NCBI RefSeq assembly: GCF_053078305.1 | Contig: NZ_CP166879.1 | Length of the DNA stretch: 64,000 nt | Reading direction: 5' to 3' (one strand) | Part shown: positions 1-22,444 of the stretch, piece by piece | Layout: every line of letters starts with the position of its first letter | How positions within the stretch are numbered: position 1 is the stretch's first letter | Notes under the pieces: generated by a model | Seen by the model: only the letters and a program-made list of their open reading frames with translations | Databases searched by the model: none | What the model was told of the DNA's origin: nothing | Program-made: the position numbers and the translations under genes

Positions 1-2325
1 CTGATTGGCGGTGTGCCCGCGATCTTTCAGCCATGCGTTCAGGCAGACGCGGGTTGCCCGCAGTGCTTCACCCTCAGGCCAGCCGGTGATACCCAGACGG
101 GTTGCCAGTTCACCCGCCATCGCCACCAGTGCAAAGCGATTCACAGCCCGGCCCACCTGGTTGCCTGCATCTTTCGGAGTCAGGGCGGCAGCATATTCCT
201 TCATCAGCGATTTTGCCTGTGCCGTTAGTCCGTTAAGATCAGCGGTCAGTGCTTTCAGCCACTCCCGGAACGGCGAACCGTAGTAGCAGGACGTGGCCCA
301 TTCAAGATGCTCTGCCAGAGCCTTGCCGCTGTCGAAGCCGTGCAGCTCCTCAAAAACGCCAAACTTCCCGGAATCGCTGGGGATCTGGATCATCCTGACT
401 TCCATCCCGGCAAAAGTACGCTCACCGGCCTTTGCCGCATGTTCGGTCAGAGATAACTCGCCAGTTGAAAAGAACAACAGGCGCCACTGCTTACGGGTAC
501 GCAGCTCACCGTCCGTACCGGCACGACCCTTGCCCTGACCGTTTGCCAGCATGTAGGCGATACTGCCTGCCTCGCGTCCGTCAACTTCCCGGATCTCATC
601 AAGCATCATGGCGGCATCGTTGCGGCGGCTGGCGCATCCCTCCAGCGCGTTGCCGGTGGCCCGCCATGTCTGCCAGTAGTCAGGCCCGCCGCAGACGGAG
701 GTTGCCGCTTTCATGGTGGTGGTCTTACCGTCTGTCGATTCCCCTTTGAGGTGGTAGCCGCCGCCGTCCATACCAACCAGCCGTAACAGTGGTGCAGCAA
801 AGGCCAGGCTGACAGCAAATGCCACGCGGGAGTTGCCGGTACAGTAGCGGGATACGTTCTCCCGCCATTCCTCTGTTGTACCCGACACGCGGAAATCACG
901 CCCCTGCACGGAAGTGGTCTGGAGAATGACACCCTCTGCACCTTCACCGCTGACCTCATCCTGCAGGACGTAAACCTGACCATGCCAGCCAGTACGGCTG
1001 ACGCAGGTCACGCGGCGTTCCGGTTTACACAGTGAGATATATTCCATCAGGCGTGCGCGTGCCTCACCGGTGGTGCTGATATAAGACAGCCCGTTAACCA
1101 GCAGTACCCGGCGCAGTTCCTCACCACTGCCGCTCAGCATTTCCATCGGCATCGCCCAGCGGCGACGCTCACCCCATGTATCTTCCCATTCCAGCAGTCG
1201 TCCGAAGTTACCGCCATCGGCATCGCAGGTGATTGCCGTAACGCGCAGCGGGCTGCATATTTTGACGTTCTGGATCTCCGTCTCACCGTTGCGCTGTACC
1301 TGCTTTTCATACCAGAGATATTCCTGGGTAAGACGGAACCCGTGCGGCAGTTGCGTGCGGCCTTCCCCGCACAGTACCAGACCGTTGCGAAAGACTTCAC
1401 GGGCACGGGTAATACCGTGCTCCCGATGAAAGTCATTCCAGTCAGCCTTAATCTCTCCTGGTGGCAGCGTCATCCAGCCGCCAACAGCTTTTGCCGCCCG
1501 TTCAGCAAAGGCTCTGCCGGGATTCTCCCCCCCGTCCTGAAAATCGTTATCACCGGCGATGATAATTTTTACCTCAGGCCAGCGTGCCCGCAGCGACTGC
1601 GCCACATTGGGCAGGTTGCCCGCAGATATGGCAGCCACTACGCATCCGGCAGTGAGCTGGCTTACCGTCAGCGCCGTAGCGTAACCTTCGGTAATCACCA
1701 CCTGTACCGGTGGTTCAGACGGTAACGGGCTGAGCGACACAAACGCGCCTTTCATCGTGCTGCCGGGCAGTATGCTTTTTTCACCCGTCGGGGCGATAAG
1801 CTGTGCACCGGTCACGGCTCCGGTGTTGGTCGTGAGTGGTAACAGCAGAGAACCGGCAGGAAAATCCTTACCGCTGATATGCTGCACGCTTCCGGTCAGA
1901 GAGGCTGGGTATCCGGCGAACCCTTTTCCTGTCAGATAGGCGCTTTCTCCCGTGTGGCTCTCTTTCATCAGCGCCGCCACGGTAAGACCCATGTCGCGTT
2001 TAGGGGCTTTTTGTCTGGCAGGCTTAACAGGCAGTTCCTGCACATCCGGCACATTAAGCATCTGCGCCACCTCCTGCGCAGCCTTTCTGACGCTGTAACC
2101 GGTTACGAGCTTAACCAGATCCAGACCGTCACCATTGCCACACTGGCTGCAGATCCACGTCCCGCGCCCGTCAAGGTCATCAAGGCGAAAACGATCCTTG
2201 CCCCCACATTTCGGGCAGGGACCGTGCCTGCCGTTTTCAGGTACATCAATACGCAGCATCTGCAGAATAACGGGCCATTTCCCCCGCGCGGCGGCTGAAA
2301 TCTGCGTAACCGTCTGTATTGTCAT
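1..2325 (-). CDS. P4 alpha-like DNA primase-helicase (zinc-ribbon, Toprim and P-loop NTPase regions); 3' end runs off the window
   Basis: Hand translation of the minus strand from ATG at 2325 stays open to position 1 (about 775 codons). N-terminus has CPKCGG...CSQCG zinc-ribbon spacing, an internal IIAGDNDF Toprim-like acidic motif and a GESTDGKTT P-loop. Absent from the ORF track because it leaves the window. Start overlaps the upstream stop as ATGA. Confidence 0.8.
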   Translation of the reverse strand, partial: MTIQTVTQISAAARGKWPVILQMLRIDVPENGRHGPCPKCGGKDRFRLDDLDGRGTWICSQCGNGDGLDLVKLVTGYSVRKAAQEVAQMLNVPDVQELPVKPARQKAPKRDMGLTVAALMKESHTGESAYLTGKGFAGYPASLTGSVQHISGKDFPAGSLLLPLTTNTGAVTGAQLIAPTGEKSILPGSTMKGAFVSLSPLPSEPPVQVVITEGYATALTVSQLTAGCVVAAISAGNLPNVAQSLRARWPEVKIIIAGDNDFQDGGENPGRAFAERAAKAVGGWMTLPPGEIKADWNDFHREHGITRAREVFRNGLVLCGEGRTQLPHGFRLTQEYLWYEKQVQRNGETEIQNVKICSPLRVTAITCDADGGNFGRLLEWEDTWGERRRWAMPMEMLSGSGEELRRVLLVNGLSYISTTGEARARLMEYISLCKPERRVTCVSRTGWHGQVYVLQDEVSGEGAEGVILQTTSVQGRDFRVSGTTEEWRENVSRYCTGNSRVAFAVSLAFAAPLLRLVGMDGGGYHLKGESTDGKTTTMKAATSVCGGPDYWQTWRATGNALEGCASRRNDAAMMLDEIREVDGREAGSIAYMLANGQGKGRAGTDGELRTRKQWRLLFFSTGELSLTEHAAKAGERTFAGMEVRMIQIPSDSGKFGVFEELHGFDSGKALAEHLEWATSCYYGSPFREWLKALTADLNGLTAQAKSLMKEYAAALTPKDAGNQVGRAVNRFALVAMAGELATRLGITGWPEGEALRATRVCLNAWLKDRGHTANQ

Positions 2326-2705
2326 ACTTCCCCCTGATACAACGTCACACCGGTACTGCAGAAGTCATCAAAGGCCGCCGGAAGCGTGCGGTACATCTCC
2401 GCCATCACTTCACAGCCGCGCGCGGTCAGTACCGGCGGCGCGGTCAGCAGTGACGGCTCCAGCATGTCAGTCAGCAGTGCCAGCGCGGCAGCGGCGCCCT
2501 GTGCTTCGCCGTACTCGTTAATCAGTGCGCACTCGATATGCAGCGCAATGGCCATTTCAATACGCTCCACCGTCAGGCTGTGCGGACCATACTGATCACT
2601 GCCAGTTTCGTTCAGCATTTTCTGCCGCCATGCTGAAGCAATAGCCCGTCGGTAAAGCGCGGTGGTCATTTCTGCCGGGAAAATGGAAACCTGCGGCTGG
2701 TTCAT
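2322..2705 (-). CDS. hypothetical protein (127 aa), island operon member
   Basis: ORF with GGAGGTG Shine-Dalgarno immediately upstream of ATG at 2705; stop overlaps the primase ATG (ATGA coupling). Confidence 0.6.
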   Translation of the reverse strand: MNQPQVSIFPAEMTTALYRRAIASAWRQKMLNETGSDQYGPHSLTVERIEMAIALHIECALINEYGEAQGAAAALALLTDMLEPSLLTAPPVLTARGCEVMAEMYRTLPAAFDDFCSTGVTLYQGEV

Positions 2706-2986
2706 CTGGCACCTCCTTCAATCAGTGCGCAGCTGTGTGCAATATCCGTCAAATCTGCCCGCAGGTACTCCATCAGCGCGGCGACACCAGGCGCACAGCC
2801 TGCGTCCAGTGCTCCGGCCTGAGACGGGTATTCAGAAAAGAGAAGCTGGAGCATGTCGCAGGCATTTCTTGCGCGGATCAGCTTTCCGAAACCGTCCTCT
2901 GACAACCCATAGGCAAAAGCACCGGTATTGTGTTTTTCAGGCAAAGTGTGGCCCTGAGCACCGTTGTGCCCGTTTGAAATATTCAT
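2702..2986 (-). CDS. hypothetical protein (94 aa), island operon member
   Basis: ORF with GGAG Shine-Dalgarno upstream of ATG at 2986; stop overlaps the next gene start (2702-2705). Confidence 0.55.
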   Translation of the reverse strand: MNISNGHNGAQGHTLPEKHNTGAFAYGLSEDGFGKLIRARNACDMLQLLFSEYPSQAGALDAGCAPGVAALMEYLRADLTDIAHSCALIEGGAR

Positions 2987-3017
2987 CGTGAATTACTCCG
3001 TTTTCAGCGGTATTTTG

Positions 3018-3377
3018 TCAGAGAAACTTTGAATAGTGACCGTCGTCAGGCTCAGCAGAACGCCGTATGGTACGCTCCCGCCAGCGGATAAATAGCACAG
3101 ACGGATGCAGTGTCAGCGGGCCGGAACCACTACTGCCTGCAGGAGCTGGTGCAGGCTTAAAGAGCGGTACATCAAACAGGCGCGTATACCGCTGTTCAAA
3201 CCATGCCAGAGGGCAGGAAGAAAGCTGGTTGTCGCTGTCATGACGTATCAGCACTTCACAGCTGAATTCAGGATTAACCAGCGCCACAGAGGGCGAGGCT
3301 TCTATTAATCGGATAATCGTGACCGTCCAGCCACGTTCATGCCGCCAGCGTTCGCCGGGGTGCGGATAATTACGCAT
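3018..3377 (-). CDS. hypothetical protein (about 119 aa), island operon member
   Basis: Track ORF 3018..3407 begins on a non-ATG codon; an in-frame ATG at 3377 is preceded by GGAGGTGA, so the shorter start is preferred. Confidence 0.5.
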   Translation of the reverse strand: MRNYPHPGERWRHERGWTVTIIRLIEASPSVALVNPEFSCEVLIRHDSDNQLSSCPLAWFEQRYTRLFDVPLFKPAPAPAGSSGSGPLTLHPSVLFIRWRERTIRRSAEPDDGHYSKFL

Positions 3378-3546
3378 GTTCACCTCCGCAGGGAATGCGC
3401 CCGGCAAAGCTCAGTACACAGTCCGGGGCAAGTCTGCGCCGCGCTGACCGCTCATTATCTGCGGTGAGCCTTAACATCACAGGACGGGCATTGCGTTGAC
3501 TGCGGTTGATCGCCGCAAATAACCAGGTACACTTCTGTTTAGCCAT
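3370..3546 (-). CDS. small hypothetical protein (58 aa), first gene of the operon leading to the primase
   Basis: ATG at 3546 preceded by GAGG at good spacing; it is the C-terminal part of the track's 244-aa ORF 3370..4104, whose upstream portion looks non-coding. Confidence 0.35.
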   Translation of the reverse strand: MAKQKCTWLFAAINRSQRNARPVMLRLTADNERSARRRLAPDCVLSFAGRIPCGGEHA

Positions 3547-3621
3547 CTTCGTTACCTCATATAGCGGATTGGTCAGAAGCCCGGTTAGTGTTGCTGCACT
3601 GTCGGGCTTCGCACTCACAAG

Positions 3622-3713
3622 GTGAATCGCACCTTTAATTTTAAAGCTACCCTTAAGTGAATCGCACTTCAAGCTTTTTATTATCATTTTTTTTGCGTAT
3701 ACTGAATCGCACC
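3622..3713. promoter_or_regulatory. three direct repeats of TGAATCGCAC(C/T) in a divergent promoter region (candidate operator sites)
   Basis: Copies read directly at 3622-3633, 3657-3668 and 3702-3713, between the minus-strand operon start (3546) and the plus-strand small gene (3734). Confidence 0.5.
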
Positions 3714-3733
3714 TAACGCGAGGAGATCCAGTA

Positions 3734-3919
3734 ATGGCAACGAGTTCAACTAACAACAAGTCGCAGCAACTTAATGCTCGTTTCCCACATGATGTAGTTG
3801 CAGAATTAGAAAGCAACCTTGAAGATGGAGAAACGAAAGCGCAATTCATTGTTACTGCTGTAAAAGGCGAGATTAAACGCCGACAGCGCAGGAAAAATAA
3901 GCCAGAGCAAGGAAGTTGA
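3734..3919 (+). CDS. small basic protein (61 aa), possible ribbon-helix-helix-type DNA-binding regulator
   Basis: ATG at 3734 preceded by AGGAG; lysine/arginine-rich C-terminus; rho-independent terminator downstream. DNA-binding role is inferred. Confidence 0.55.
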   Translation: MATSSTNNKSQQLNARFPHDVVAELESNLEDGETKAQFIVTAVKGEIKRRQRRKNKPEQGS

Positions 3920-3982
3920 ATAGAGAAGCCAACAGACGTTCTCTCTGGTCCCATGTTAATTTCAGTAAGCGACAATATTTTT

Positions 3983-4016
3983 AAGCCCACAAATTCATTA
4001 TGTCGGGCTTTTTTAT
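3983..4016 (+). terminator. rho-independent terminator downstream of the 61-aa gene
   Basis: GC stem (aagccc...gggctt) followed by a T-run at 4009-4015. Confidence 0.5.
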
Positions 4017-4030
4017 TAGTGATTTTCATA

Positions 4031-4246
4031 TCACTCACCACGAGAGGCATATATTTGCTCTTGAATCCAGTGATCAACTTCGCTTTCAACGAATGAAATT
4101 GCACGAGTTCCTATTTTCACCGGACGGGGAAATGTATTGTTTGCAAGCTGTTTGTAAAGCCATGCCTTGCTACGCTGAACGCGTCTTAATACCTCTTTTG
4201 CTGAGATAAGAGTCTGATTATCTGAAAAGCTGTTTGCATATTCCAT
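4031..4246 (-). CDS. alpA: AlpA-family phage transcriptional regulator / excisionase-like protein (71 aa)
   Basis: Size and sequence character match AlpA-type regulators of P4-like islands; ATG at 4246 preceded by GGAG. Track ORF starts earlier at 4291. Confidence 0.7.
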   Translation of the reverse strand: MEYANSFSDNQTLISAKEVLRRVQRSKAWLYKQLANNTFPRPVKIGTRAISFVESEVDHWIQEQIYASRGE

Positions 4247-4530
4247 CTTGTTACTCCGTGTTCTACTTAAGTTCACGGTGACTTTAAACACTGGGAAAAA
4301 GTGATTCTAGTGATAATGGAATCTATTAAGACAAACATTGATTCTATTGAAAAACAATAATCTCCACTGAAAAAAAGAAGTAATATTCATATGAAAGAAC
4401 ACGGAAAGAAGGAAATGCACAAAACAATAAAATTAATAAAATTCATATAGATAGGATGGAAAATCAAAAAATCATACGTCAAAAGGTATTATTACATTTT
4501 AACGATTCATATTACCTAGGAATTAGCACA

Positions 4531-4560
4531 GTATTACACCGTATTACATCGTATTACCCC
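4531..4560. repeat. three perfect tandem 10-bp repeats GTATTACNNC
   Basis: gtattacacc / gtattacatc / gtattacccc read directly in the AT-rich intergenic region between the 212-aa gene and alpA. Confidence 0.6.
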
Positions 4561-4622
4561 CTATAGCCCCTTAGAGCCTCTTGTGGCCCTTCTATTGAGA
4601 GATAGCCAGAAAATTAATAAAT

Positions 4623-5261
4623 TCACTCTCCGTATTTTATAATGTCTTTCCCCAGCTTTATTTTCTTATAAAACGTAGCTTTTTTAATCCCTTTCATTAG
4701 AATCTCATTCTCATTACAAAAAGAAACAATATCATTATATATAACACTATTATCGCTATAACTTACCTTTCCATGTCTCTTAAGCAATTCAATTAGTAAA
4801 TAAATTAATTTACAACTATAATTATCCTCATCATCTTTTCTGTACTGCCCTCTACCATTACTCCTTAATTTTTTACCAACTTCACATAATTCACTTCCTC
4901 CTAACGTCATTAGAATATCGCTCCAATCTTTATTTTTTACCTGTTGTCGTAATGCGTTCTCAATTCTCTCCTTAATCTCCACAGGTACAATACCTTCCCT
5001 CTGAAAGATATAAGCAGCAGTTAATAATAAGTTCGCCTCCACTTTTTGCGTGGCGGATACGTTTTTATATTCATTAATTAATTGTAGATTTCTGGTTATT
5101 GCCTTTCTTAATCTAATAACCTCTTTTAATTGAACCTCAGTCAATTCATCATTTTCGGTATCATAGTCAAAACCATTCATAGCAAGCGCCACTTCGTGTG
5201 GCGTTATGTAAGTTAACCTATTAAAATAAAACAAATTATTATCAAATTGAGTATTGTTCAT
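4623..5261 (-). CDS. hypothetical protein (212 aa), AT-rich orphan cargo gene immediately downstream of the integrase
   Basis: ATG at 5261 preceded by GGAGAG; clean ORF; visibly AT-rich and rich in K/N/I/E codons compared with flanking core genes; no motif I can recognise. Confidence 0.7.
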   Translation of the reverse strand: MNNTQFDNNLFYFNRLTYITPHEVALAMNGFDYDTENDELTEVQLKEVIRLRKAITRNLQLINEYKNVSATQKVEANLLLTAAYIFQREGIVPVEIKERIENALRQQVKNKDWSDILMTLGGSELCEVGKKLRSNGRGQYRKDDEDNYSCKLIYLLIELLKRHGKVSYSDNSVIYNDIVSFCNENEILMKGIKKATFYKKIKLGKDIIKYGE

Positions 5262-5290
5262 TTAAATCTCTCCGCAGCCCCCAATGGTAA

Positions 5291-6574
5291 TTATTTTCCA
5301 TGCATACGCGCAAAATCATATGGTGTGATAGATCCATTCTTATTAGCATCAATATAATCAGCCCACCATTGCAACATTAATCTTCTTTCTTCAAGATATT
5401 CGGAAGTATGCATATATGAACCTTTCACGTTTTTTCGTTCAACGTGGCTTAACTGTCTTTCAATGGCATCATCATTCCATAGTTTCGACTCACTTAGCGC
5501 ACCACGCGCCATAGTTCTAAACCCATGACCACATACTTCAGTTTTCGTATCATATCCCATTACACGTAAGGCGTTATTTACTGTATTTTCACTCATTACT
5601 TTTTTAGGATCATGATCGCTGGGAAATATAACCTCACCTTTACCACTCAAGGCATGTAAACGTTTAAAAATATCAAATGCTTGTTTGCTAAGCGGAACAA
5701 TATGTTCAGTTTTCATCTTCATCCCACGCTCAGAGTGTTTTACGCCGGGAATAGGCTTACGAATTCCGGGTATTGTCCACTCGCTTCGTTCAAAGTTAAC
5801 CTCACTCCAGCGAGCAAAACGCATCTCACTTGAACGTATAAATGTGAGTAGCGTTAATTCAACGGCAAGCCGTGTCATTAGTCGCCCTTTATAGCGTGAT
5901 AGTCTTTCAAGAAGCTCAGGAATTCTTTTTGGGGGTAGTGCTGGGTGGTGGGTTGCTTTAACGCTTAAAAGCGCTCCAGCCATATCGCATGCAGGATTTG
6001 ATTCAAGCAGGTCATTCTGCACACCAAAACGCATAATTGCGGTTACGCGCTGCATCAGTCGCTGCGCGACATCATGTTTACCTGCCGTATCGACAGCTTT
6101 GATTGGATTGAGAAGCTGGCTGGTTCTCAACGTTCTGGCATCGATTTGACCTATCGAGGGGAAAATATACTGCTCAAGTGTCAGCAGAACACGACGGCTA
6201 TGATCTTCGCTCCAAGTAAGGTTACTTGCGTGCCATTGCCTTGCGATAGTTTCAAATAAATATGCCCCCTCAATTTCAGCTTGTGCCCCCTTTTGCTCAG
6301 CTTTGGGGTCAATACCCTGAGACAACAATTTCTTTGCTGCATCGCGCTTACCCCGCGCTTCAGCCAAAGTGACAGTCGGGTATACACCAAAAGCGAGTCG
6401 ATCTTCCTTTTTGTCAGAGGGGCGGCGATATTTCATGCGCCAGTACTTAGAACCTTTAGGGGAGACCTCAAGATACAAGCCGCCTCCATCAGCCATTTTA
6501 TAAGCTTTCTCTTTCGGCTTTGCGGTCTCTATCTGGCGAGCGTTGAGTTTCATTTTGGGGGCACAAATCCTCAT
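5291..6574 (-). CDS. P4-type tyrosine integrase (site-specific recombinase)
   Basis: 427-aa ORF adjacent to the tRNA 3' end; sequence character matches P4-family integrases. True start may be the internal Met at 6553. Confidence 0.85.
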   Translation of the reverse strand: MRICAPKMKLNARQIETAKPKEKAYKMADGGGLYLEVSPKGSKYWRMKYRRPSDKKEDRLAFGVYPTVTLAEARGKRDAAKKLLSQGIDPKAEQKGAQAEIEGAYLFETIARQWHASNLTWSEDHSRRVLLTLEQYIFPSIGQIDARTLRTSQLLNPIKAVDTAGKHDVAQRLMQRVTAIMRFGVQNDLLESNPACDMAGALLSVKATHHPALPPKRIPELLERLSRYKGRLMTRLAVELTLLTFIRSSEMRFARWSEVNFERSEWTIPGIRKPIPGVKHSERGMKMKTEHIVPLSKQAFDIFKRLHALSGKGEVIFPSDHDPKKVMSENTVNNALRVMGYDTKTEVCGHGFRTMARGALSESKLWNDDAIERQLSHVERKNVKGSYMHTSEYLEERRLMLQWWADYIDANKNGSITPYDFARMHGK

Positions 6575-6717
6575 CGAATTGACATGCCCCCGATTATGCC
6601 CCCAAAAGAGGGTAGACTACAAGAGACCAACAAAGACCATTAGATACCATACTTTACTTGTTTTTTAAGGATTTTTTTGTATTTAGAGACTTCAGGAAAC
6701 GTCAAAAGAAGTGTTAA

Positions 6718-6802
6718 TGGTGCCGAAGGCCGGACTCGAACCGGCACGTATTTCTACGGTTGATTTTGAATCAACTGCGTCTACCGATTTCGCCACTTCG
6801 GC
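6718..6802 (-). tRNA. leuX: tRNA-Leu (anticodon CAA)
   Basis: Reverse complement reads GCCGAAGTGGCGAAATCGGTAGACGCAGTTGATTCAAAATCAACCGTAGAAATACGTGCCGGTTCGAGTCCGGCCTTCGGCACCA, with the CCA end facing the integrase. Confidence 0.95.
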
Positions 6803-6997
6803 ACTGAAGAGGTATGCGGAAAACGTTGTGGATTATACCTGTCGCACGCCACCATGCAAGCGCCAGCTTGCTCGCACCTCGCTAAGTGCTGAAATTTTCA
6901 GCATTGCATACAGCGATGTGTAACCTTTGTCACACTCCAGGCACCCCTCCCTGCCATGCTCTACACTTCCCAGACAACACCAGAGAAGGACCAAAAA

Positions 6998-8017
6998 ATG
7001 TCGATGATAAAAAGCTATGCCGCAAAAGAAGCGGGCGGCGAACTGGAACTTTATGAGTACGATCCCGGTGAATTGAAGCCACAAGATGTTGAAGTGCAGG
7101 TGGATTACTGCGGGATCTGCCATTCCGATCTGTCGATGATCGACAACGAATGGGGATTTTCACAATATCCACTGGTTGCCGGGCATGAGGTGATTGGTCG
7201 CGTAGTGGCGCTCGGGAGTGCCGCGCAGGATAAAGGTTTGCAGGTCGGTCAGCGTGTCGGGATTGGCTGGACGGCACGCAGCTGCGGGCATTGCGATGCC
7301 TGTATTAGCGGTAATCAGATCAACTGCGAGCAAGGTGCGGTGCCGACGATTTTGAATCGCGGCGGTTTTGCCGAGAAGTTGCGTGCGGACTGGCAATGGG
7401 TAATCCCACTGCCAGAAAATATCGACATTGAATCTGCTGGGCCGCTGTTGTGCGGCGGTATCACGGTCTTTAAACCACTGTTGATGCACCATATCACTGC
7501 CACCAGCCGCGTCGGCGTGATTGGTATTGGCGGGCTGGGGCATATCGCTATAAAACTTCTGCACGCAATGGGATGCGAGGTGACAGCCTTTAGTTCTAAT
7601 CCGGCGAAAGAGCAGGAAGTACTGGCGATGGGTGCCGATAAAGTGGTGAATAGCCGCGATCCGCAGGCACTGAAAACTCTGGCGGGGCAGTTTGATCTCA
7701 TTATCAATACTGTGAACGTCAGCCTCGACTGGCAGCCTTATTTTGAGGCGCTGACCTATGGCGGTAATTTCCATACGGTCGGTGCGGTTCTCACGCCGCT
7801 GTCTGTTCCGGCCTTTACGTTAATTGCGGGCGACCGCAGCATCTCTGGTTCTGCTACCGGCACGCCTTATGAGCTGCGAAAGCTGATGCGCTTTGCCGCC
7901 CGTAGCAAGGTTGCGCCGACCACCGAACTGTTCCCGATGTCGAAAATTAACGACGCCATCCAGCATGTGCGCGACGGTAAGGCGCGTTACCGCGTGGTGT
8001 TGAAAGCCGATTTTTGA
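6998..8017 (+). CDS. ahr: NADPH-dependent aldehyde reductase (zinc alcohol dehydrogenase family)
   Basis: Protein from [14 protein letters not shown] matches E. coli Ahr/YjgB (339 aa) as recalled; track ORF starts 14 codons earlier. Confidence 0.93.
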
Positions 8018-8020
8018 AAA

Positions 8021-8584
8021 TCATTCGCAGCGCTGATCTGAGGCGCTGCCCTCTTTCGCACATATTCTGTTTTGTCGTATCGCCAGCACAGCCTGCCGAC
8101 ATTGTTCGGTGACATTGGCAATATCATGGTTGATATCAATGCGCACAATATCCTGTTCATCTGCTTGTGGACGCTCCAGCGCCTCAAACTGACTTTTTAG
8201 TAACGCTACCGGCATAAAATGCCCAGCCCGACGCTGCATTCGCGCGAGGATAGTTTCATAGTCGCCATCTAACCAGAGGAAATGAACATGGGGGCTACCC
8301 TTGCGTAAAATATCACGATACTGTTTTTTTAATGATGAACAGACAATAAATCCTGTTTCATTCTTTTTATAAAGACTGTATGAAGCATCATTTAAGCGTT
8401 CCAGCCAGGGAAGTCGATCTTCATCAGATAATGGAATACCCTGCGACATTTTATCTATATTTTTGGCTGGATGAAGATCGTCACCATCAATAAATTTAGC
8501 AGATAATAACGCGGCAACCTTGCTACCAATTAATGTTTTACCACTCCCTGAAACGCCCATCAAAATAAAGCTTTCACCCGCCAT
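8021..8584 (-). CDS. idnK: gluconokinase (thermosensitive, idonate pathway)
   Basis: 187 aa with GVSGSGKT P-loop; position in the idn cluster. Confidence 0.93.
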   Translation of the reverse strand: MAGESFILMGVSGSGKTLIGSKVAALLSAKFIDGDDLHPAKNIDKMSQGIPLSDEDRLPWLERLNDASYSLYKKNETGFIVCSSLKKQYRDILRKGSPHVHFLWLDGDYETILARMQRRAGHFMPVALLKSQFEALERPQADEQDIVRIDINHDIANVTEQCRQAVLAIRQNRICAKEGSASDQRCE

Positions 8585-8687
8585 TTAAAATCTCCTGAAT
8601 CATCTTACCTGCTGCGATACTACGCCTGGTGGCATAATAATTTCACGTTTTTTTATTTCTGCTGATAAGAATTACAAGGCACATCAC

Positions 8688-8699
8688 GTTATGCGTAAC
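8688..8699. promoter_or_regulatory. putative GntR/IdnR-type operator half-palindrome in the idnK-idnD divergent promoter
   Basis: Near-palindrome GTTATGCGTAAC read in the intergenic region; assignment by resemblance only. Confidence 0.3.
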
Positions 8700-8800
8700 A
8701 TAGTAATGTAACAATTTTCTGACGTGATCTTCATCACAAATAATGACAATTAAAACCGCTTAAATGCTTCCGAGGTGTCTACCTGACCAGTGAGGAATTT

Positions 8801-9832
8801 ATGCAAGTGAAAACACAGTCCTGCGTTGTTGCGGGCAAGAAAACTGTTGCCGTTACCGAGCAGACGATAGATTGGAATAATAATGGAACATTAGTACAAA
8901 TAACCCGAGGTGGAATTTGCGGTTCCGATTTACATTATTATCAGGAAGGAAAAGTAGGTAATTTCATGATAAAGGCACCGATGGTGTTAGGTCATGAAGT
9001 TATCGGTAAAGTTATTCATAGCGACTCATCAGAATTACATGAAGGGCAAACGGTAGCCATTAATCCGTCTAAACCGTGCGGTCACTGCAAATACTGCATT
9101 GAACATAACGAGAATCAGTGTACAGAGATGCGTTTTTTTGGCAGTGCCATGTATTTCCCTCATGTTGATGGTGGCTTTACCCGTTATAAAATGGTCGAAA
9201 CGTCGCAATGTGTCCCTTATCCGGCCAAAGCTGAAGAAAAGGTTATGGCTTTTGCCGAACCTTTAGCCGTCGCGATTCATGCCGCACATCAGGCCGGCGA
9301 GTTACAGGGCAAGCGAGTATTTATTTCTGGTGTTGGGCCCATTGGCTGCCTGATTGTCAGTGCTGTGAAAACACTGGGGGCCGCGGAAATTGTCTGTGCC
9401 GATGTGAGTCCCCGTTCCCTTTCGCTGGGCAAAGAGATGGGGGCGGATGTGCTCGTAAACCCACAAAACGACGACATGGATCACTGGAAAGCGGAAAAAG
9501 GCTATTTCGATGTCAGCTTTGAAGTGTCCGGTCATCCTTCATCAGTGAATACCTGTCTGGAGGTCACTCGTGCACGCGGCGTAATGGTGCAGGTAGGTAT
9601 GGGAGGCGCGATGGCAGAATTCCCAATGATGACGTTGATTGGTAAGGAGATTTCACTCAGAGGCTCTTTCCGTTTTACCAGCGAATTTAATACCGCAGTG
9701 TCATGGCTGGCGAATGGCGTTATCAATCCACTGCCTTTACTGAGTGCTGAATATCCCTTCACTGACCTGGAAGAGGCGCTACGTTTCGCCGGTGATAAAA
9801 CCCAGGCAGCAAAAGTCCAGCTTGTTTTCTAA
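8801..9832 (+). CDS. idnD: L-idonate 5-dehydrogenase
   Basis: 343-aa zinc-ADH-family protein in conserved position. Confidence 0.93.
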   Translation: MQVKTQSCVVAGKKTVAVTEQTIDWNNNGTLVQITRGGICGSDLHYYQEGKVGNFMIKAPMVLGHEVIGKVIHSDSSELHEGQTVAINPSKPCGHCKYCIEHNENQCTEMRFFGSAMYFPHVDGGFTRYKMVETSQCVPYPAKAEEKVMAFAEPLAVAIHAAHQAGELQGKRVFISGVGPIGCLIVSAVKTLGAAEIVCADVSPRSLSLGKEMGADVLVNPQNDDMDHWKAEKGYFDVSFEVSGHPSSVNTCLEVTRARGVMVQVGMGGAMAEFPMMTLIGKEISLRGSFRFTSEFNTAVSWLANGVINPLPLLSAEYPFTDLEEALRFAGDKTQAAKVQLVF

Positions 9833-9855
9833 GAGATAAATAAAGGAATAATACA

Positions 9856-10620
9856 ATGAACGATCTATTTTCACTGGCAGGAAAAAATATCTTGATTACC
9901 GGTTCAGCACAGGGCATTGGCTTTTTACTGGCAACCGGCCTGGGTAAATATGGCGCACAAATAATTATTAATGATATTACTGCCGAACGCGCAGAACTTG
10001 CTGTAGAAAAACTCCACCAGGAGGGTATTCAGGCCGTTGCCGCACCTTTTAATGTTACTCATAAACATGAAATTGATGCCGCCGTTGAACATATCGAAAA
10101 GGACATCGGCCCCATTGATGTGCTGGTGAATAACGCCGGTATCCAGCGCCGTCATCCTTTTACTGAGTTCCCTGAACAAGAGTGGAATGATGTGATCGCA
10201 GTAAACCAGACCGCCGTGTTCCTGGTATCGCAAGCGGTAACTCGTCACATGGTTGAACGCAAGGCAGGTAAAGTTATTAATATTTGCTCGATGCAAAGCG
10301 AACTGGGACGTGACACCATCACCCCTTATGCCGCATCGAAAGGGGCGGTAAAAATGCTCACCCGCGGCATGTGCGTCGAGCTGGCGCGCCACAATATTCA
10401 GGTCAACGGTATTGCGCCGGGCTATTTCAAAACAGAAATGACTAAAGCACTGGTTGAGGACGAAGCCTTCACCGCCTGGTTGTGCAAACGGACCCCCGCC
10501 GCACGCTGGGGAGATCCGCAGGAACTGATTGGTGCTGCGGTGTTCCTTTCTTCAAAAGCCTCTGATTTCGTAAACGGCCACCTGTTGTTTGTTGATGGCG
10601 GCATGTTAGTGGCTGTTTAA
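9856..10620 (+). CDS. idnO: 5-keto-D-gluconate 5-reductase (short-chain dehydrogenase)
   Basis: 254-aa SDR with TGSAQGIG Rossmann motif. Confidence 0.93.
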   Translation: MNDLFSLAGKNILITGSAQGIGFLLATGLGKYGAQIIINDITAERAELAVEKLHQEGIQAVAAPFNVTHKHEIDAAVEHIEKDIGPIDVLVNNAGIQRRHPFTEFPEQEWNDVIAVNQTAVFLVSQAVTRHMVERKAGKVINICSMQSELGRDTITPYAASKGAVKMLTRGMCVELARHNIQVNGIAPGYFKTEMTKALVEDEAFTAWLCKRTPAARWGDPQELIGAAVFLSSKASDFVNGHLLFVDGGMLVAV

Positions 10621-10682
10621 CAGCCCCCCCTACGTGCAGCGCGAAAGCGCTGCTTTTCTGGCACTAATAAGAGATAAAGACT

Positions 10683-12002
10683 ATGCCATTAATCATTATT
10701 GCGGCAGGCGTCGCGCTGCTTCTTATCCTGATGATCGGCTTTAAAGTTAACGGCTTTATTGCCCTCGTTCTGGTAGCTGCCGTCGTCGGATTTGCCGAAG
10801 GGATGGATGCACAGGCCGTCCTGCACTCTATACAAAATGGTATCGGCAGCACGCTCGGCGGGCTGGCAATGATCCTCGGTTTCGGGGCCATGTTAGGCAA
10901 GCTGATTTCTGATACGGGTGCGGCACAACGTATCGCCACTACGCTGATTGCTACTTTTGGTAAAAAACGCGTGCAATGGGCGCTAGTGATCACCGGTCTG
11001 GTTGTGGGCCTCGCCATGTTTTTTGAAGTGGGTTTTGTCCTGCTGTTGCCGTTGGTATTTACCATCGTAGCATCATCAGGATTACCCCTGTTGTATGTTG
11101 GTGTACCAATGGTAGCAGCGCTCTCTGTAACCCACTGTTTTCTGCCGCCACATCCAGGGCCTACTGCCATCGCGACTATCTTTGAGGCTAATCTCGGAAC
11201 GACTTTACTGTATGGATTTATCATTACCATTCCGACAGTTATTGTCGCAGGACCGCTGTTTTCTAAACTGCTAACTCGCTTTGAGAAAGCACCACCGGAA
11301 GGCTTATTTAATCCTCATCTGTTTAGCGAAGAGGAGATGCCCTCCTTCTGGAACAGTATTTTCGCTGCCGTGATCCCGGTCATCCTGATGGCTATCGCCG
11401 CCGTTTGTGAAATTACGTTACCGAAAACTAACACCGTGCGCCTCTTCTTTGAATTTGTCGGTAACCCTGCCGTTGCGCTGTTTATTGCCATTGTTATTGC
11501 GATTTTCACACTGGGCCGACGTAATGGACGCACCATCGAGCAAATCATGGATATCATTGGGGATTCTATAGGCGCTATCGCGATGATTGTGTTTATTATC
11601 GCTGGCGGCGGCGCGTTTAAGCAGGTATTAGTAGATAGCGGTGTCGGGCACTATATTTCACACTTAATGACCGGAACTACACTTTCGCCGTTATTGATGT
11701 GCTGGACTGTTGCGGCGCTGTTGCGTATCGCTCTGGGCTCTGCCACCGTCGCGGCCATTACCACCGCGGGTGTGGTGTTGCCGATTATCAACGTTACCCA
11801 TGCCGATCCCGCTTTAATGGTACTGGCAACCGGTGCGGGCAGCGTGATCGCGTCACACGTAAACGACCCTGGCTTCTGGCTATTTAAAGGGTATTTTAAT
11901 CTGACGGTTGGTGAAACGTTGCGTACCTGGACGGTGATGGAAACCCTTATTTCTATTATGGGTTTGCTGGGGGTGTTAGCCATTAACGCCGTATTGCACT
12001 GA
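10683..12002 (+). CDS. idnT: L-idonate/5-ketogluconate/gluconate transporter (GntP family)
   Basis: 439-aa polytopic membrane protein in the idn cluster. Confidence 0.93.
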   Translation: MPLIIIAAGVALLLILMIGFKVNGFIALVLVAAVVGFAEGMDAQAVLHSIQNGIGSTLGGLAMILGFGAMLGKLISDTGAAQRIATTLIATFGKKRVQWALVITGLVVGLAMFFEVGFVLLLPLVFTIVASSGLPLLYVGVPMVAALSVTHCFLPPHPGPTAIATIFEANLGTTLLYGFIITIPTVIVAGPLFSKLLTRFEKAPPEGLFNPHLFSEEEMPSFWNSIFAAVIPVILMAIAAVCEITLPKTNTVRLFFEFVGNPAVALFIAIVIAIFTLGRRNGRTIEQIMDIIGDSIGAIAMIVFIIAGGGAFKQVLVDSGVGHYISHLMTGTTLSPLLMCWTVAALLRIALGSATVAAITTAGVVLPIINVTHADPALMVLATGAGSVIASHVNDPGFWLFKGYFNLTVGETLRTWTVMETLISIMGLLGVLAINAVLH

Positions 12003-12068
12003 AAGAATAAAATATTGTGATGTAGTTTCGGGGGAAGATTGAAGATTCCCCCGACGTTGGGAGAAGTT

Positions 12069-13067
12069 ATGCGCAATCACAGAATTTCTTTACAGGATAT
12101 CGCTACGCTGGCTGGCGTAACAAAAATGACCGTGAGTCGTTATATCCGCTCGCCGAAAAAGGTGGCAAAGGAAACAGGCGAGCGCATCGCCAAAATTATG
12201 GAAGAGATCAATTATATCCCTAATCGCGCTCCCGGCATGTTGTTGAATGCACAAAGTTATACCCTCGGTATCTTGATTCCGTCATTTCAAAATCAACTCT
12301 TCGCTGACATTCTCGCGGGAATAGAATCCGTCACCTCTGAGCATAATTATCAGACCCTTATTGCTAATTACAATTACGATCGCGATTCCGAAGAAGAGTC
12401 GGTGATTAACCTGCTCTCTTATAACATTGACGGGATTATACTTTCGGAAAAATATCACACCATCAGGACGGTGAAATTTCTGCGTTCAGCCACCATTCCG
12501 GTCGTGGAATTGATGGATGTACAGGGAGAACGGCTGGATATGGAGGTCGGTTTTGATAATCGGCAGGCCGCTTTTGACATGGTGTGTACCATGCTGGAGA
12601 AGCGAGTCAGGCACAAAATTCTGTATCTCGGTTCCAAAGATGACACCCGCGATGAACAGCGTTATCAGGGGTATTGCGATGCGATGATGCTGCATAATCT
12701 TTCCCCATTACGCATGAATCCACGCGCCATCTCATCCATTCATTTAGGAATGCAGTTAATGCGTGATGCCCTTAGCGCAAACCCGGATTTAGACGGTGTA
12801 TTTTGCACCAATGACGATATTGCGATGGGTGCGCTTCTGCTGTGCCGCGAGCGAAACCTCGCCGTGCCAGAACAAATTTCCATTGCGGGTTTTCATGGGC
12901 TGGAGATTGGCAGGCAAATGATCCCAAGCCTCGCCAGCGTAATTACTCCCCGTTTTGATATTGGTCGGATGGCCGCCCAAATGTTGCTGAGCAAAATTAA
13001 AAATAACGATCACAACCACAACACTGTTGACCTCGGGTATCAGATTTATCACGGCAACACGCTTTAG
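12069..13067 (+). CDS. idnR: LacI-family transcriptional regulator of the idn operon
   Basis: Helix-turn-helix N-terminus ([20 protein letters not shown]); start set at the internal Met to give 332 aa. Confidence 0.9.
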
Positions 13068-13144
13068 GTTATTTTCTCTTCATTACACGTATTCTCTTTG
13101 CCGGACGTTGCCTATACTCCAGGCAGGAAACTGGAGGAAATCTC

Positions 13145-14647
13145 ATGAGCGACCCCCTGTTAATTGCACGCACGCCGGACACAGAACTGTTTTTACTGCC
13201 GGGAATGGCTAACCGTCACGGGCTGATTACTGGCGCAACGGGGACGGGTAAAACCGTTACGCTGCAAAAACTGGCTGAGTCTCTATCGGAAATCGGCGTG
13301 CCGGTGTTTATGGCTGATGTGAAAGGCGATCTGACCGGTATCGCGCAGGCAGGAACGGCGTCGGAAAAACTGCTCACAAGGCTTAAAAATATCGGCGTCA
13401 ATGACTGGCAACCGCATGCCAATCCGGTGGTGGTGTGGGATATCTTTGGCGAGAAAGGCCATCCGGTGCGGGCGACGGTTTCGGATCTGGGGCCGCTGTT
13501 GCTGGCACGACTGTTGAATCTCAACGATGTGCAATCTGGCGTGCTGAATATCATCTTCCGCATTGCTGATGATCAGGGGCTGTTACTGCTCGACTTTAAA
13601 GATTTGCGGGCGATTACCCAGTACATCGGCGATAACGCCAAATCCTTCCAGAATCAGTACGGAAATATCAGTAGCGCATCGGTTGGTGCCATCCAGCGCG
13701 GGCTGTTATCGCTGGAACAGCAAGGCGCAACACACTTTTTTGGTGAGCCGATGCTGGATATCAAAGACTGGATGCGCACCGATGCCAACGGTAAAGGCGT
13801 TATCAATATCCTCAGCGCCGAGAAGCTTTATCAGATGCCGAAACTGTACGCCGCCAGTCTGCTGTGGATGCTTTCAGAGTTGTATGAACAATTGCCGGAA
13901 GCGGGCGATCTGGAGAAACCAAAACTGGTGTTTTTTTTCGACGAGGCACATCTGCTGTTTAACGATGCCCCGCAGGTACTGCTGGATAAGATTGAGCAGG
14001 TGATAAGGCTTATTCGCTCAAAAGGCGTGGGCGTCTGGTTCGTTTCGCAAAACCCGTCTGATATTCCGGATAATGTGCTCGGCCAGCTCGGTAATCGCGT
14101 TCAACATGCTTTGCGGGCTTTTACGCCCAAAGATCAGAAAGCGGTAAAAGCTGCGGCGCAAACCATGCGGGCCAATCCGGCGTTTGATACCGAAAAGGCG
14201 ATTCAGGAACTGGGCACCGGCGAGGCGTTGATCTCTTTTCTGGATGCGAAAGGAAGCCCTTCTGTGGTGGAGCGTGCGATGGTGATCGCGCCTTGTTCGC
14301 GGATGGGGCCGGTGACGGAAGATGAGCGTAATGGCTTGATTAATCACTCTCCGGTGTATGGCAAGTACGAGGATGACGTGGACCGGGAATCCGCCTATGA
14401 GATGTTGCAAAAAGGCTTTCAGGCCAGTAACGAGCAGCAAAATAACCCCCCCGCGAAAGGGAAAGAGGTAGCGGTGGATGACGGCATTCTTGGTGGATTG
14501 AAGGATATTTTGTTTGGCACTACCGGACCACGCGGCGGGAAGAAAGATGGTGTGGTGCAAACAATGGCCAAAAGCGCCGCTCGCCAGGTAACGAATCAGA
14601 TTGTACGCGGGATGTTGGGGAGTTTGCTGGGGGGGAGAAGAAGGTAA
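13145..14647 (+). CDS. yjgR: HerA/FtsK-like P-loop NTPase (DUF853 family), function uncharacterized
   Basis: 500 aa with GATGTGKT Walker A. Confidence 0.9.
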
Positions 14648-14705
14648 GTCAGGCGAGATTTGTCTTTGCCTGATGCGACGCTGGCGCGTCTTATCATGCC
14701 CACCC
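14648..14705. repeat. REP element
   Basis: gcctgatgcgacgctggcgcgtcttatcatgcc-type palindromic unit after yjgR. Confidence 0.6.
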
Positions 14706-14771
14706 CACAGCAATATATTGAATTTTAATTATTTTTCAGGAATGAACGAAGCACACTTTGCTAACAATAAT

Positions 14772-14797
14772 AAAGGGAGCTTTCGCTCCCTTTATTC
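14772..14797. terminator. hairpin terminator between yjgR and lptG
   Basis: aaagggagc-tttc-gctcccttt stem-loop flanked by T/A runs. Confidence 0.6.
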
Positions 14798-14807
14798 GTT
14801 CATTCGG

Positions 14808-16990: not shown

Positions 16991-17253
16991 TTTAAATACG
17001 CCCGTAAAAACTCGTCTTTTGCAGGATTTTAGCTTGTTTCATGGCTTAAACGTCATTTATTCTCTTGAGTCGTCGAAATCGTCGCTAAGATAATTATACT
17101 CAACGGATTCACCTCTCAGATTTTGTTCTGACGTGCCAATGCCGTAATAACGTTAAGATTAACACGAAGTCATCGCAACAGCGGACATGAGTTACGAAAG
17201 CTTGCAATTCTATCTGTAGCCACCGCCGTTGTCTTTAAGATTCAGGAGCGTAG

Positions 17254-18768
<1,515 letters not shown>

Positions 18769-18769
18769 T

Positions 18770-19092
<323 letters not shown>

Positions 19093-19121
19093 ATTTAAAT
19101 CCACCACAAGAAGCCCCATAT

Positions 19122-19565
19122 ATGAAAAACGCGACGTTCTACCTTCTGGACAATGACACCACCGTCGATGGCTTAAGCGCCGTTGAGCAGTTGGTGTGTG
19201 AAATTGCCGCAGAACGTTGGCGCAGCGGTAAGCGCGTGCTCATCGCCTGTGAAGATGAAAAGCAGGCTTACCGGCTGGATGAAGCCCTGTGGGCGCGTCC
19301 GGCAGAAAGCTTTGTTCCGCATAATTTAGCGGGAGAAGGACCGCGCGGCGGTGCGCCGGTGGAGATCGCCTGGCCGCAAAAACGCAGCAGCAGCCCGCGC
19401 GATATATTGATTAGTCTGCGAACAAGCTTTGCAGATTTTGCCACCGCTTTCACAGAAGTGGTAGACTTCGTTCCTTATGAAGATTCTCTGAAACAACTGG
19501 CGCGCGAACGCTATAAAGCCTACCGCGTGGCTGGTTTCAACCTGAATACGGCAACCTGGAAATAA
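19122..19565 (+). CDS. holC: DNA polymerase III chi subunit
   Basis: 147 aa; stop overlaps valS ATG by one base. Confidence 0.95.
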
Positions 19566-22420: not shown

Positions 22421-22444
22421 TCAAAACACAGTGATGAAAACGAA

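Follow-up and report, generated by a model that had tools for sequence, protein, structure and literature searches.

A probable P4-family phage satellite in the 3' end of leuX and its possible control by a YlcI-type protein and an antisense RNA

Genes and features at leuX

The window analysed here is a stretch of 64,000 nucleotides from contig NZ_CP166879.1 (NCBI RefSeq assembly GCF_053078305.1). From its edge up to the tRNA gene, the first 6,802 positions hold the following features:

1-2325, minus strand: primase-helicase "alpha", 775 of 890 codons as an open frame cut by the window edge
2322-2705, minus strand: DUF5375 protein, homologue of P4 orf106 (PF17345, E=1.7e-13)
2702-2986, minus strand: orf94 (phrog_14861; P4 epsilon is phrog_10016)
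3018-3377, minus strand: orf119 (phrog_30862)
3370-3546, minus strand: Icd/Kil-like small protein of 58 aa, first gene of the operon (NF033153, 81 bits)
3540-3623, plus strand: candidate cis-antisense RNA facing the ribosome-binding site and start codon of icd (two hairpins, covariation)
3623-3634, 3658-3669 and 3703-3714, no strand: three copies of TGAATCGCAC(C/T)T, proposed to act as operators near the divergent promoters (repeat family D2)
3734-3919, plus strand: YlcI/YnfO-family protein of 61 aa (NF041551), divergent from the icd-alpha operon
4031-4246, minus strand: AlpA/Vis-type HTH regulator, putative excisionase and activator (PF05930, E=9e-12)
4531-4560, minus strand: three tandem 10-bp repeats with a GTAATAC core, candidate protein-binding sites between the 212-aa gene and alpA
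4623-5261, minus strand: orphan gene of 212 aa in the int-proximal variable slot (GC 30-34%, all-helical product)
5291-6553, minus strand: P4-type tyrosine integrase of 420 aa starting with MKLNARQ (P4 Int similarity, Pfam)
6553-6607, minus strand: Int arm-type sites resembling TTGGGGGCAT, two in tandem and one inverted over the int start codon, identified side by side with the annotated P4 arm repeats
6718-6802, minus strand: tRNA-Leu(CAA) leuX, the single tRNA call of both ARAGORN and Rfam

The leuX gene is identical to that of K-12, and since its last 20 nt (6718-6737) equal the core of P4 attP, GAGTCCGGCCTTCGGCACCA, these positions represent attL. An exact 18-bp repeat at 6724-6741 is found again at attR of L001, a 99.9%-identical relative, where attR lies 12,724 bp away and is adjoined by P' arm sites; attR is also present in the relative L027. 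In the source genome, TGTGCCCCC arm sites would be expected beside attR. Element length in the 99.9%-identical E. coli relatives is 12.7 kb. The arm-site layout is that of P4 attP, with more copies within int at 6263-6269 and 6284-6290, and a tyrosine integrase beside a tRNA attachment site with core repeat and arm sites, as typical of the P4 family, is hence given. As can be read from the sequence, the tRNA is rebuilt by the element's own copy of the core. The original prediction of a P4-family integrase faced by the 3' end of leuX is thereby borne out by both core and arm sites, and the attR-like repeat of the tRNA 3' end which it called for exists in L001. It had also placed most of the island outside the window, which has to be revised to about half (6.0 of 12.7 kb) according to the nearest relatives.

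The integrase shares 71.6% identity with P4 Int over 415 aa and 55.6% with K-12 IntB, and carries the Pfam domains Arm-DNA-bind_3, Phage_int_M and Phage_integrase. Its mechanical open reading frame spans 5291-6574, with the real start being placed at 6553 by alignment with P4. The AlpA/Vis-type regulator expected of a P4-family element is likewise present, as judged from PF05930 and from a weak but significant similarity to P4 Vis/orf88 (24.5% identity, E=7e-6); its PHROG matches are phrog_66 and phrog_2790 (excisionase). From family knowledge, AlpA/Vis would direct excision. The GTAATAC-core repeat occurs in 2 to 6 tandem copies among the relatives scoring for it, all of which have the same int/212-aa/alpA module. 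These repeats were considered as replication origin and dismissed, as they travel with the int/alpA module and not with alpha. This module is itself swapped among relatives.

The four overlapping small genes on the minus strand (3370-3546, 3018-3377, 2702-2986 and 2322-2705) show gene overlaps of the translational-coupling type. The Icd/Kil-like product of the first one shares 52% identity with the C-terminal portion of the eta/kil frame of P4, Kil being a truncated form of Eta (PMC10111431). The DUF5375 protein shares 39.6% identity as well as PHROG 5991 with P4 orf106. Relationships of the two genes in between are less clear. Orf119 is possibly a distant relative of P4 orf151/cnr, judged by sequence comparison (BLAST E=0.005, hhalign probability 21%). 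Orf94 sits in the small-gene stretch upstream of alpha just as P4 epsilon does, with relatedness not being demonstrable (hhalign probability 5%). A recognisable epsilon was not obtained by BLAST, the PHROGs of orf94 and orf119 differ from that of P4 epsilon, and the best hhalign probability was 5%; homologues of epsilon and cnr were therefore not assigned, as BLAST, PHROG and hhalign yielded nothing convincing.

The alpha frame starts with an ATG at 2325 and stays open for 775 codons through base 1, encoding the domains Zn_Ribbon_Prim, Toprim_3 and DUF927. The Zn-ribbon and TOPRIM domains expected of a P4-family alpha primase are thus there, and homology to P4 alpha extends over aa 5-321 only (37.7% identity, 321 aligned residues, hhalign probability 100%). 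Past residue 321 no similarity to P4 alpha was detected, and a P4-type helicase/ori-binding C-terminal part was not found; the best PHROG is 1139 versus 2249 for P4 alpha. Every island gene in the window is intact and has the same length as in relatives. As to gene content, the predicted succession of integrase, cargo and AlpA-like regulator is found on the minus strand as listed, and so are the small-gene operon and the primase-helicase running off the window from its ATG at 2325. Calling the latter "alpha-type" is appropriate for the N-terminal primase third and not for the remainder, where homology to P4 alpha ends.

The control region between icd and ylcI

The gene at 3734-3919, which the original prediction does not mention, belongs to the YlcI/YnfO family with 65.7 bits for NF041551 versus a cut-off of 30. 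At least six YlcI allele groups exist, each with its own repeated and mostly palindromic motif at matching promoter positions, another type being ATGGTAATTACCAT. From this co-variation of alleles and motifs, we propose that the YlcI-type protein is a repressor, putatively of the ribbon-helix-helix type. Evidence on the fold is weak (PDB profile E=0.078; AF2 pLDDT 65), and the monomer model was too poor for a meaningful Foldseek search, in which the top matches were ribbon-helix-helix proteins at E of about 5. Nothing functional was found in the literature for YlcI/YnfO and Icd-like genes. If the proposal is right, the protein would bind the three operators overlapping the divergent promoters and thereby repress the icd-alpha operon.

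A P4-type CI RNA would have been expected upstream of icd. Covariance models of C4/CI and isrK (RF01695, RF01394, RF03163), however, gave no match at E<=1 in positions 1-7200, while the controls scored strongly with 74.9, 60.8 and 44.1 bits in P4 and 79.9 and 74.5 bits in the distant relative L020, and such an RNA was rejected here. What is found opposite the start of icd is a candidate RNA whose 5' stem holds the anti-start codon and whose loop 1 holds the anti-Shine-Dalgarno sequence; its two hairpins are followed by a third one at 3619-3635 and then by a T-rich tail. Compensatory changes affect 11 of 14 hairpin pairs (99.5% of cells paired), and the corresponding RNA model also finds relatives it had not seen. 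When IMG/VR was scanned again with Icd, a single further contig came to light. In Rfam, the RNA resembles SymR (RF01809; 26.3 bits, E=0.1, 3541-3613, plus strand), which lies below the gathering threshold of 61, and SymR homology was dismissed on this score and kept as an architectural resemblance. Lying antisense to the ribosome-binding site of icd, this short RNA probably keeps synthesis of the Kil-like product switched off, so that the prophage would be regulated by the YlcI-type protein and the antisense RNA in place of the P4 CI RNA.

The hairpin upstream of icd might also be read differently, namely not as a separate sRNA and instead as terminator or attenuator in a leader into ylcI from a promoter inside icd, as insulator against antisense read-through, or as protein-bound DNA palindrome. 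Such a reading is consistent with the location of ylcI some 110 nt further downstream in the same orientation, with an antisense promoter that is weak by consensus (8/12) and does not appear in the promoter listing, and with helix 1 being mostly invariant (6 of 11 pairs never vary); moreover, palindromes bound by dimeric proteins show paired changes as well. In contrast, many positions form G-U pairs on the plus strand only, which correspond to A-C mismatches on the other strand and make imperfect DNA palindromes, all of the 11 sequences favour the plus strand, and the variants of the hairpin do not follow those of YlcI. Most relatives also have a U-run after the hairpin, although the copy in the window lacks one directly after hairpin 2. 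On balance, we consider these non-sRNA functions less likely than not. Returning to the antisense RNA, we tentatively suggest, at somewhat below an even chance, that the element represents a distinct P4-like lineage in which RNA immunity (CI/C4 acting on seqA/isrK) has been replaced by a YlcI/YnfO ribbon-helix-helix repressor whose palindromic operators overlie divergent promoters and are specific to each allele, together with a new, non-Rfam cis-antisense RNA silencing the Kil/Icd-like first gene. The three-part cassette of YlcI, antisense RNA and Icd also travels with an unrelated primase island (L047).

Downstream functions in relatives

The window ends within alpha, and sid, psu, delta, cos, cargo and attR are known from relatives only. 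There, alpha is followed by iterons, sid, psu, delta, a cos-like site, a variable defence slot and attR. Both sid and delta come directly after alpha in every relative whose alpha is at least 97% identical and whose DNA extends beyond the gene, and psu was detected in the closest relatives too (L001, L004-L006). In L001, L004 and L027 (98-100% identity across the part in common), the sid, psu and delta set expected of a P4-like satellite is present. Sid of the relatives matches phrog_6165 (E=7e-93), a PHROG common with P4 Sid, Psu matches PF07455 (E=8e-44), and the Ogr_Delta Pfam match has E=7e-16.

Where alpha is at least 97% identical, nearly every relative has a cluster of five to seven TGTTCCACC iterons after the gene (L011 has four, and in L010 they are doubled), and among the relatives compared the cluster is absent where alpha is at most 90% identical. 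These iterons thus travel with alpha and resemble the P4 type I iteron TGTTCACC. By analogy with the family, the excised circle would be replicated by the Zn-ribbon/TOPRIM/DUF927 protein from the iterons just downstream. A cos-like sequence, GCGAGGCGGG, lies at the edge of the conserved block and adjoins the variable slot. In L001 (17466-17484; cf. AGCGAGGCGGGCAGGCGTG) it has an exact run of 10 nt and only 11 of the 19 cohesive-end bases; searching P2-like phages gave no convincing match, the search being uninformative. The position of the slot agrees with the published cos-adjacent hotspot (PMC9122126).

Judging from these 98-100%-identical relatives, delta would switch on the late genes of a P2-like helper, Sid and Psu would remodel its capsid, the cos-like site would allow packaging, and exchangeable anti-phage cargo would be carried in the cos-adjacent slot. 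This cargo varies, with PDC-M38 in 34 genomes and retron St85 in others; in strain EC20 the candidate defence system PDC-M38 (PADLOC) was recognised with 1109 bits for A and E=1e-138 for B, outside the window. Only 34 of 201 carrier genomes share the left half of EC20 in full, and differences in this half so far lie in the cargo slot and not in the sid-psu-delta block.

Identity and spread of the element

Of 5426 complete E. coli genomes, no more than 201 contain at least 80% of the region, and the lineage is present in about 6-8% of complete E. coli genomes. Compared with EC20, the island differs in 9 of 6802 bases and the adjoining core in ~1.5%; between lineages, the island has diverged roughly ten times less than the flank, which points to recent transfer. 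The best core match to the host among the 5426 genomes is only 99.1%, so that no sequenced strain stands in for it. Taken together, positions 1-6802 very probably constitute the attL-proximal half of a P4-family phage satellite which is intact, was recently transferred and sits in the 3' end of leuX, an explanation which includes the regulatory and helper-dependent steps proposed above. The int-alpA-primase half by itself would not tell a PICI from a P4-like satellite. Gram-negative PICIs are defined by int, alpA and a primase along with genes that redirect the capsid or packaging of a lambdoid helper, and by the absence of sid, psu and delta, whereas in the relatives these three genes and a cos-like site are present instead. 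The original prediction of a P4-like integrative island that is not syntenic core in all E. coli is consequently upheld by the distribution; the island is better described as P4-like phage satellite than as generic island because sid, psu, delta and the cos-like site come after alpha in relatives. Instead of the further cargo anticipated outside the window, a helper-hijacking module and one small defence cassette are to be expected.

The same data were weighed against an unlikely reading as a decaying, immobile P4-type remnant, comparable to intB/KpLE2 of K-12, that neither excises nor is packaged and is kept for its cargo only. Degenerate islands are common at leuX, as illustrated by the intB pseudogene and IS elements of K-12, a second integrase beyond attR of L027 is frameshifted, epsilon is not recognisable and the cos-like site is divergent. 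All island genes in the window are nevertheless intact with lengths as in relatives, arm sites, core and attR are preserved, the operon retains its translational-coupling overlaps, and the low divergence of the island relative to its flank speaks for recent transfer. Even less probable, and in our judgement highly improbable, is a non-satellite integrative island in the source genome which shares the int-to-primase half and continues leftward with something other than sid, psu and delta. Modules do recombine freely, as seen from the sid-psu-delta block in the P4-order element Sakai Sp2, the swapped int/alpA module, the YlcI/antisense/Icd cassette beside a different primase in L047, and the left half of EC20 being complete in only 34 of 201 genomes. 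Against this, every relative whose alpha is at least 97% identical and whose DNA continues past that gene has the iterons and sid directly after it, and the left-half differences have so far spared sid-psu-delta. The P4-family satellite is an ordinary and well-known kind of mobile element, of a lineage that appears to regulate itself unlike P4.

P4-like satellites rank among the most common mobile elements in Enterobacterales, with a major role in carrying exchangeable anti-phage systems, and leuX is a classic hotspot for insertions. Membership in this family explains the strain-specific content at the locus, and predicts helper-hijacking genes plus one defence cassette beyond the window as well as movement of the island with P2-like helpers. 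The lineage further shows that P4-like conserved organisation and RNA immunity are not universal, and offers a testable role for uncharacterised YlcI/YnfO proteins along with a candidate new antisense RNA; if true, the protein switch would give this family a function.

Comparison with known systems

Like P4 (NC_001609), the element integrates at leuX with the same 20-bp core and arm-site layout and a 72% identical Int, and it has a Vis/AlpA-type regulator, a Kil/Icd-like frame, an orf106/DUF5375 gene, the N-terminal primase of alpha and TGTTC(C)ACC iterons; Sid, Psu, Delta and a cos-adjacent accessory slot are shared through its relatives. In place of the P4 gene order (int, psu, delta, sid, alpA, epsilon, alpha), however, int, alpA, alpha, sid, psu and delta follow each other on one strand. 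The sid-psu-delta block comes after alpha in the same orientation, whereas that of P4 diverges from vis. Further differences are that attP lies between cargo slot and int (between int and crr in P4), that one iteron cluster replaces the separate ori and crr, that the C-terminal two-thirds of alpha are DUF927-type and that Delta is half-size (90 aa). In addition, the element has no clear epsilon or cnr and no C4/CI, isrK or seqA RNA, and has a divergent YlcI-type gene and an antisense hairpin instead.

The surveyed P4-like family has a median size of about 10 kb (Moura de Sousa and Rocha, PMC8628076; Rousset et al., PMC9122126), compared to 12.7 kb here, and shares with the element the core of int, alpA and alpha and, in relatives, sid, psu and delta, the variable defence slot adjoining cos and the exchange of the integrase module. 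These surveys describe the P4 order (77%), exchanged positions of psu and delta (20%), alpA placed after alpha (1.2%) and int beside alpha with everything else reversed (under 1%), but not the order int-alpA-alpha-sid-psu-delta. In prophage Sp2 of O157:H7 Sakai, a "P4-like phage", the sid-psu-delta block occurs in the same order with 92% DNA identity. Its layout is nevertheless that of P4, with int, cargo, delta-psu-sid on the opposite strand, a regulator and a 777-aa P4-type primase, and it gave no match to the antisense RNA model R1.

The leuX island of K-12 (intB/PR-Y plus KpLE2) occupies the same tRNA and side; a P4-family integrase again comes immediately after the tRNA, and nanS and fim lie past the far end of the island. 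As predicted, the content next to the integrase differs: K-12 has the intB pseudogene, only 56% identical, followed by IS elements including IS2 and about 40 kb of KpLE2 with metabolic genes (fec, sgc, yjh) and no satellite genes. Finally, SymR/SymE and the C4/CI RNAs of P1 and P4 in icd/kil control likewise place a short structured RNA opposite or just upstream of a gene for a small toxic protein. With 26 bits for SymR versus a gathering threshold of 61 and no match for C4, homology to these systems is not demonstrated, and the likeness is one of architecture.

Locus and gene content

The region 1-6802 is a P4-family satellite prophage located in the site used by P4 itself, which supports and sharpens the original prediction of a P4-like integrative island. 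It belongs to a very well-known kind of element, and the annotation of about 200 RefSeq genomes already includes copies of it, without a name. Integrase, cargo, AlpA-like gene, small-gene operon and a primase starting with ATG at 2325, all anticipated from the sequence, were found as follows, together with one ORF absent from that earlier gene list (3734-3919).

6718-6802 (-), tRNA-Leu(CAA) leuX, the sole tRNA gene in the window
5291-6574 (-), integrase ORF (Pfam Arm-DNA-bind_3, Phage_int_M, Phage_integrase)
4623-5261 (-), ORF of 212 aa
4031-4246 (-), AlpA-family gene (Pfam Phage_AlpA)
3734-3919 (+), YlcI/YnfO-family ORF
3370-3546, 3018-3377, 2702-2986 and 2322-2705 (-), four overlapping small genes, the last one with Pfam DUF5375
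2325 (ATG) to 1 (-), large ORF, open for 775 codons down to base 1 (Pfam Zn_Ribbon_Prim, Toprim_3, DUF927)

The window leuX is identical to that of K-12, and ahr, idnK and idnDOTR to its right correspond to the K-12 leuX surroundings in reverse reading. The content beside the integrase is indeed unlike K-12, where an intB pseudogene (56% protein identity), IS2 and the KpLE2 region of about 40 kb are found. The 212-aa gene is accessory cargo: it is AT-rich (GC 30-34% versus 55-62% in the replication genes), and its slot is filled by unrelated proteins in relatives. Pfam, NCBIfam and PADLOC returned zero matches and a structure search no usable one, the sole PHROG match being 30524, a family without known function; homologues fall into 23 clusters, from Enterobacterales wherever a source is named. 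Between this gene and alpA, 10-bp repeats built on a GTAATAC core are arrayed in tandem at 4531-4560, and relatives scoring for the repeat carry 2-6 tandem copies, all sharing the same module as the window.

Integration module and boundaries

Over 415 residues, the integrase shares 71.6% identity with P4 Int, and the final 20 nt of the tRNA equal the attP core as annotated in P4. Upstream of int lie a tandem pair of arm sites and, across the start codon, an inverted one; this arrangement agrees with that of P4 at almost every base and places the true int start at 6553. Hence, the element relies on P4-type machinery and on the archetypal P4 site. While leuX occurs in nearly all of 5426 complete E. 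coli genomes, only 201 contain 80% or more of the 6.8 kb (megablast), and the region is accordingly not syntenic core. The attR-like repeat of the tRNA 3' end expected leftward is present in E. coli EC20, which differs from the window by 9 mismatches over 6802 bases: 18 bp of the leuX 3' end recur exactly at a distance of 12,724 bp from the tRNA copy, adjoined by two arm-type sites in the layout of the P4 P' arm. Therefore, neither a missing repeat nor a core location speaks against an island. Leftward, the EC20 element completes the primase gene (890 aa in all) and goes on with a Sid-like gene, psu, an ogr/delta gene and an AAA-ATPase with its partner, followed past the element by nanS, nanM, nanC and fim. 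The expectation that most of the island lies outside the window has to be corrected to roughly half (about 6.0 of 12.7 kb). On the attR side of EC20, outside the window (L001 13978-14017), GGTGCGAA occurs three times in tandem ahead of the core repeat, which may be a scar left by slippage or recombination; one relative (L027) has one copy there.

Mobility and host lineage

Island and EC20 differ in 0.13% of bases, the adjoining core in about 1.5%, and the best match of the chromosomal backbone (6803-26000) among complete E. coli genomes reaches 99.1%. Taken together, these sequence comparisons point to a recent horizontal transfer into a lineage outside the genome collection. Right beside the insertion site, 7001-8000 (ahr) is locally hyper-divergent, with 46 mismatches/kb versus EC20 and about 5/kb in the next 2 kb. 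Further along, a yjgL-like ORF of 626 aa (26054-27934, -) includes an extended series of LQKLNN-type repeats and shares only about 81% identity with the EC20 allele, in surrounding core of about 98.5%. The pepA-holC intergenic region (18771-19069) holds approximately three tandem repeats of about 98 bp, 91-94% mutually identical, which are probably BIME/REP-type elements.

Satellite genes, cargo and replication

In relatives, the Sid-like protein encoded after alpha shares a PHROG with P4 Sid (E=7e-93), and Psu and Ogr_Delta give clear Pfam matches. Identity to the P4 proteins is low (24%, 29% and 45%). The backbone icd-orf119-orf94-DUF5375-alpha-sid-(psu)-delta is common to 22 IMG/VR loci, which were retrieved with alpha and whose integrases are 39% to 100% identical to that of the window. 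Between delta and the cargo, a cos-like sequence (an exact 10-nt run, 11 of 19 cohesive-end bases) marks the exact point where homology among the E. coli elements ends and cargo starts, fitting the published cos-adjacent hotspot of P4-like satellites (PMC9122126). The cargo of EC20, outside the window, is PDC-M38, and the left half is common to only 34 genomes; in others that match in the right half, a retron St85 is found. Cargo varies between carriers. Directly downstream of alpha in EC20, six TGTTCCACC iterons (L001 19430-19609, about 350-570 bp beyond the left edge of the window) form the likely origin. Five to seven copies occur in nearly all relatives with an alpha at least 97% identical, and these iterons accompany closely related alpha proteins only.

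A proposed protein and antisense regulatory cassette

On the strand opposite to the 5' leader and the beginning of icd, the Icd/Kil-like first gene of the small-gene operon (3370-3546, -), two hairpins are predicted at 3540-3623 (+; z=-3.9), which we infer to be a candidate antisense RNA to icd. In hairpin 2, 99.5% of pairing is kept across 14 distinct sequences, with compensatory changes in 11 of 14 pairs, and every shuffled or slid control scores lower. Folding favours the plus strand in 11 of 11 cases, many pairs are G-U on that strand only, and a U-run lies 3' of the hairpin in most relatives. The covariance model (R1) picks up relatives outside its training set, with no match in P4, Sakai Sp2 or C4-bearing loci. 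On the weaker side, the antisense candidate reaches only 26 bits with the SymR model, its promoter is poor by consensus, and the window copy has no U-run straight after hairpin 2. A competing reading that stays in play takes the hairpins as a terminator or as a leader for ylcI. Viewed over 3540-3645 (+), the conserved two-hairpin structure is antisense to the ribosome-binding site and the start codon of icd and is outside Rfam.

The module is found in 433 of 5426 genomes. In L047 (NZ_CP019944.1 2493154-2496224), the YlcI / antisense hairpin / Icd-like cassette (R1, 77 bits) adjoins an unrelated primase and a DUF4222 gene; therefore, the cassette is a mobile regulatory module not confined to this satellite.

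A gene of 43-64 aa is divergent from the icd operon in every relative. Its alleles pair with distinct repeated intergenic motifs, mostly palindromes, in at least six groups, or seven counting L047 (window motif 3623-3714, protein 3734-3919; compared loci L005, L011, L014, L018, L045 and L047).

Small-gene alleles and their intergenic motifs
Window-type allele: 3 x GTGCGATTCA
L011 allele: 3 x GTGGGCCACA
L014 allele: 3 x GTGTCGGACA
MSTP...PPFQMRL-type allele: ATGGTAATTACCAT, 1-2 copies
L045/L046 allele: GTGTAATGTGTCATTACAC
L018 allele: GGTGGCCACC
L047 allele: own distinct motif

Alleles of the three-site (YlcI-type) kind have one copy placed between the -35, TTGA(A/C)G, and the -10, another just past the -10 and the third at the small gene's own -10. 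This co-variation of allele and motif suggests a repressor-operator pair for the YlcI family, which is without published function. The protein is a putative ribbon-helix-helix repressor with cognate predicted operators, and may stand in for RNA immunity. Variable residues map to a predicted N-terminal strand, the profile weakly matches the ribbon-helix-helix protein HP0222 (E=0.078), and the AF2 monomer has a low-confidence, strand-less helix-helix pattern.

Comparison with P4

Novelty is limited to lineage-level differences from P4, above all this computationally derived protein and antisense cassette. Rfam models C4, isrK and c4-a1b1 give zero matches at E<=1 in 1-7200, but score 75, 61 and 44 bits on P4; a more distant relative with P4-like gene order (L020) yields 80 and 75 bits. 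In the P4 eta/kil frame, the similarity of the 58-aa Icd-like product is confined to the C-terminal part, which is the Kil portion (PMC10111431). Alpha is homologous to P4 alpha over residues 5-321 only, and homologues of epsilon and cnr are not demonstrable. The iterons of EC20 are TGTTCCACC, and P4 type I is TGTTCACC. Finally, the lineage has the order int, alpA, alpha, sid, psu, delta on one strand, which is missing from the arrangements that a survey of the family gives (PMC8628076). The EC20 iterons lie between alpha and sid and so correspond in position to P4 crr ('downstream of alpha') as well as to P4 ori ('upstream of sid'), which hints that the rearranged order arose via recombination between iteron clusters.
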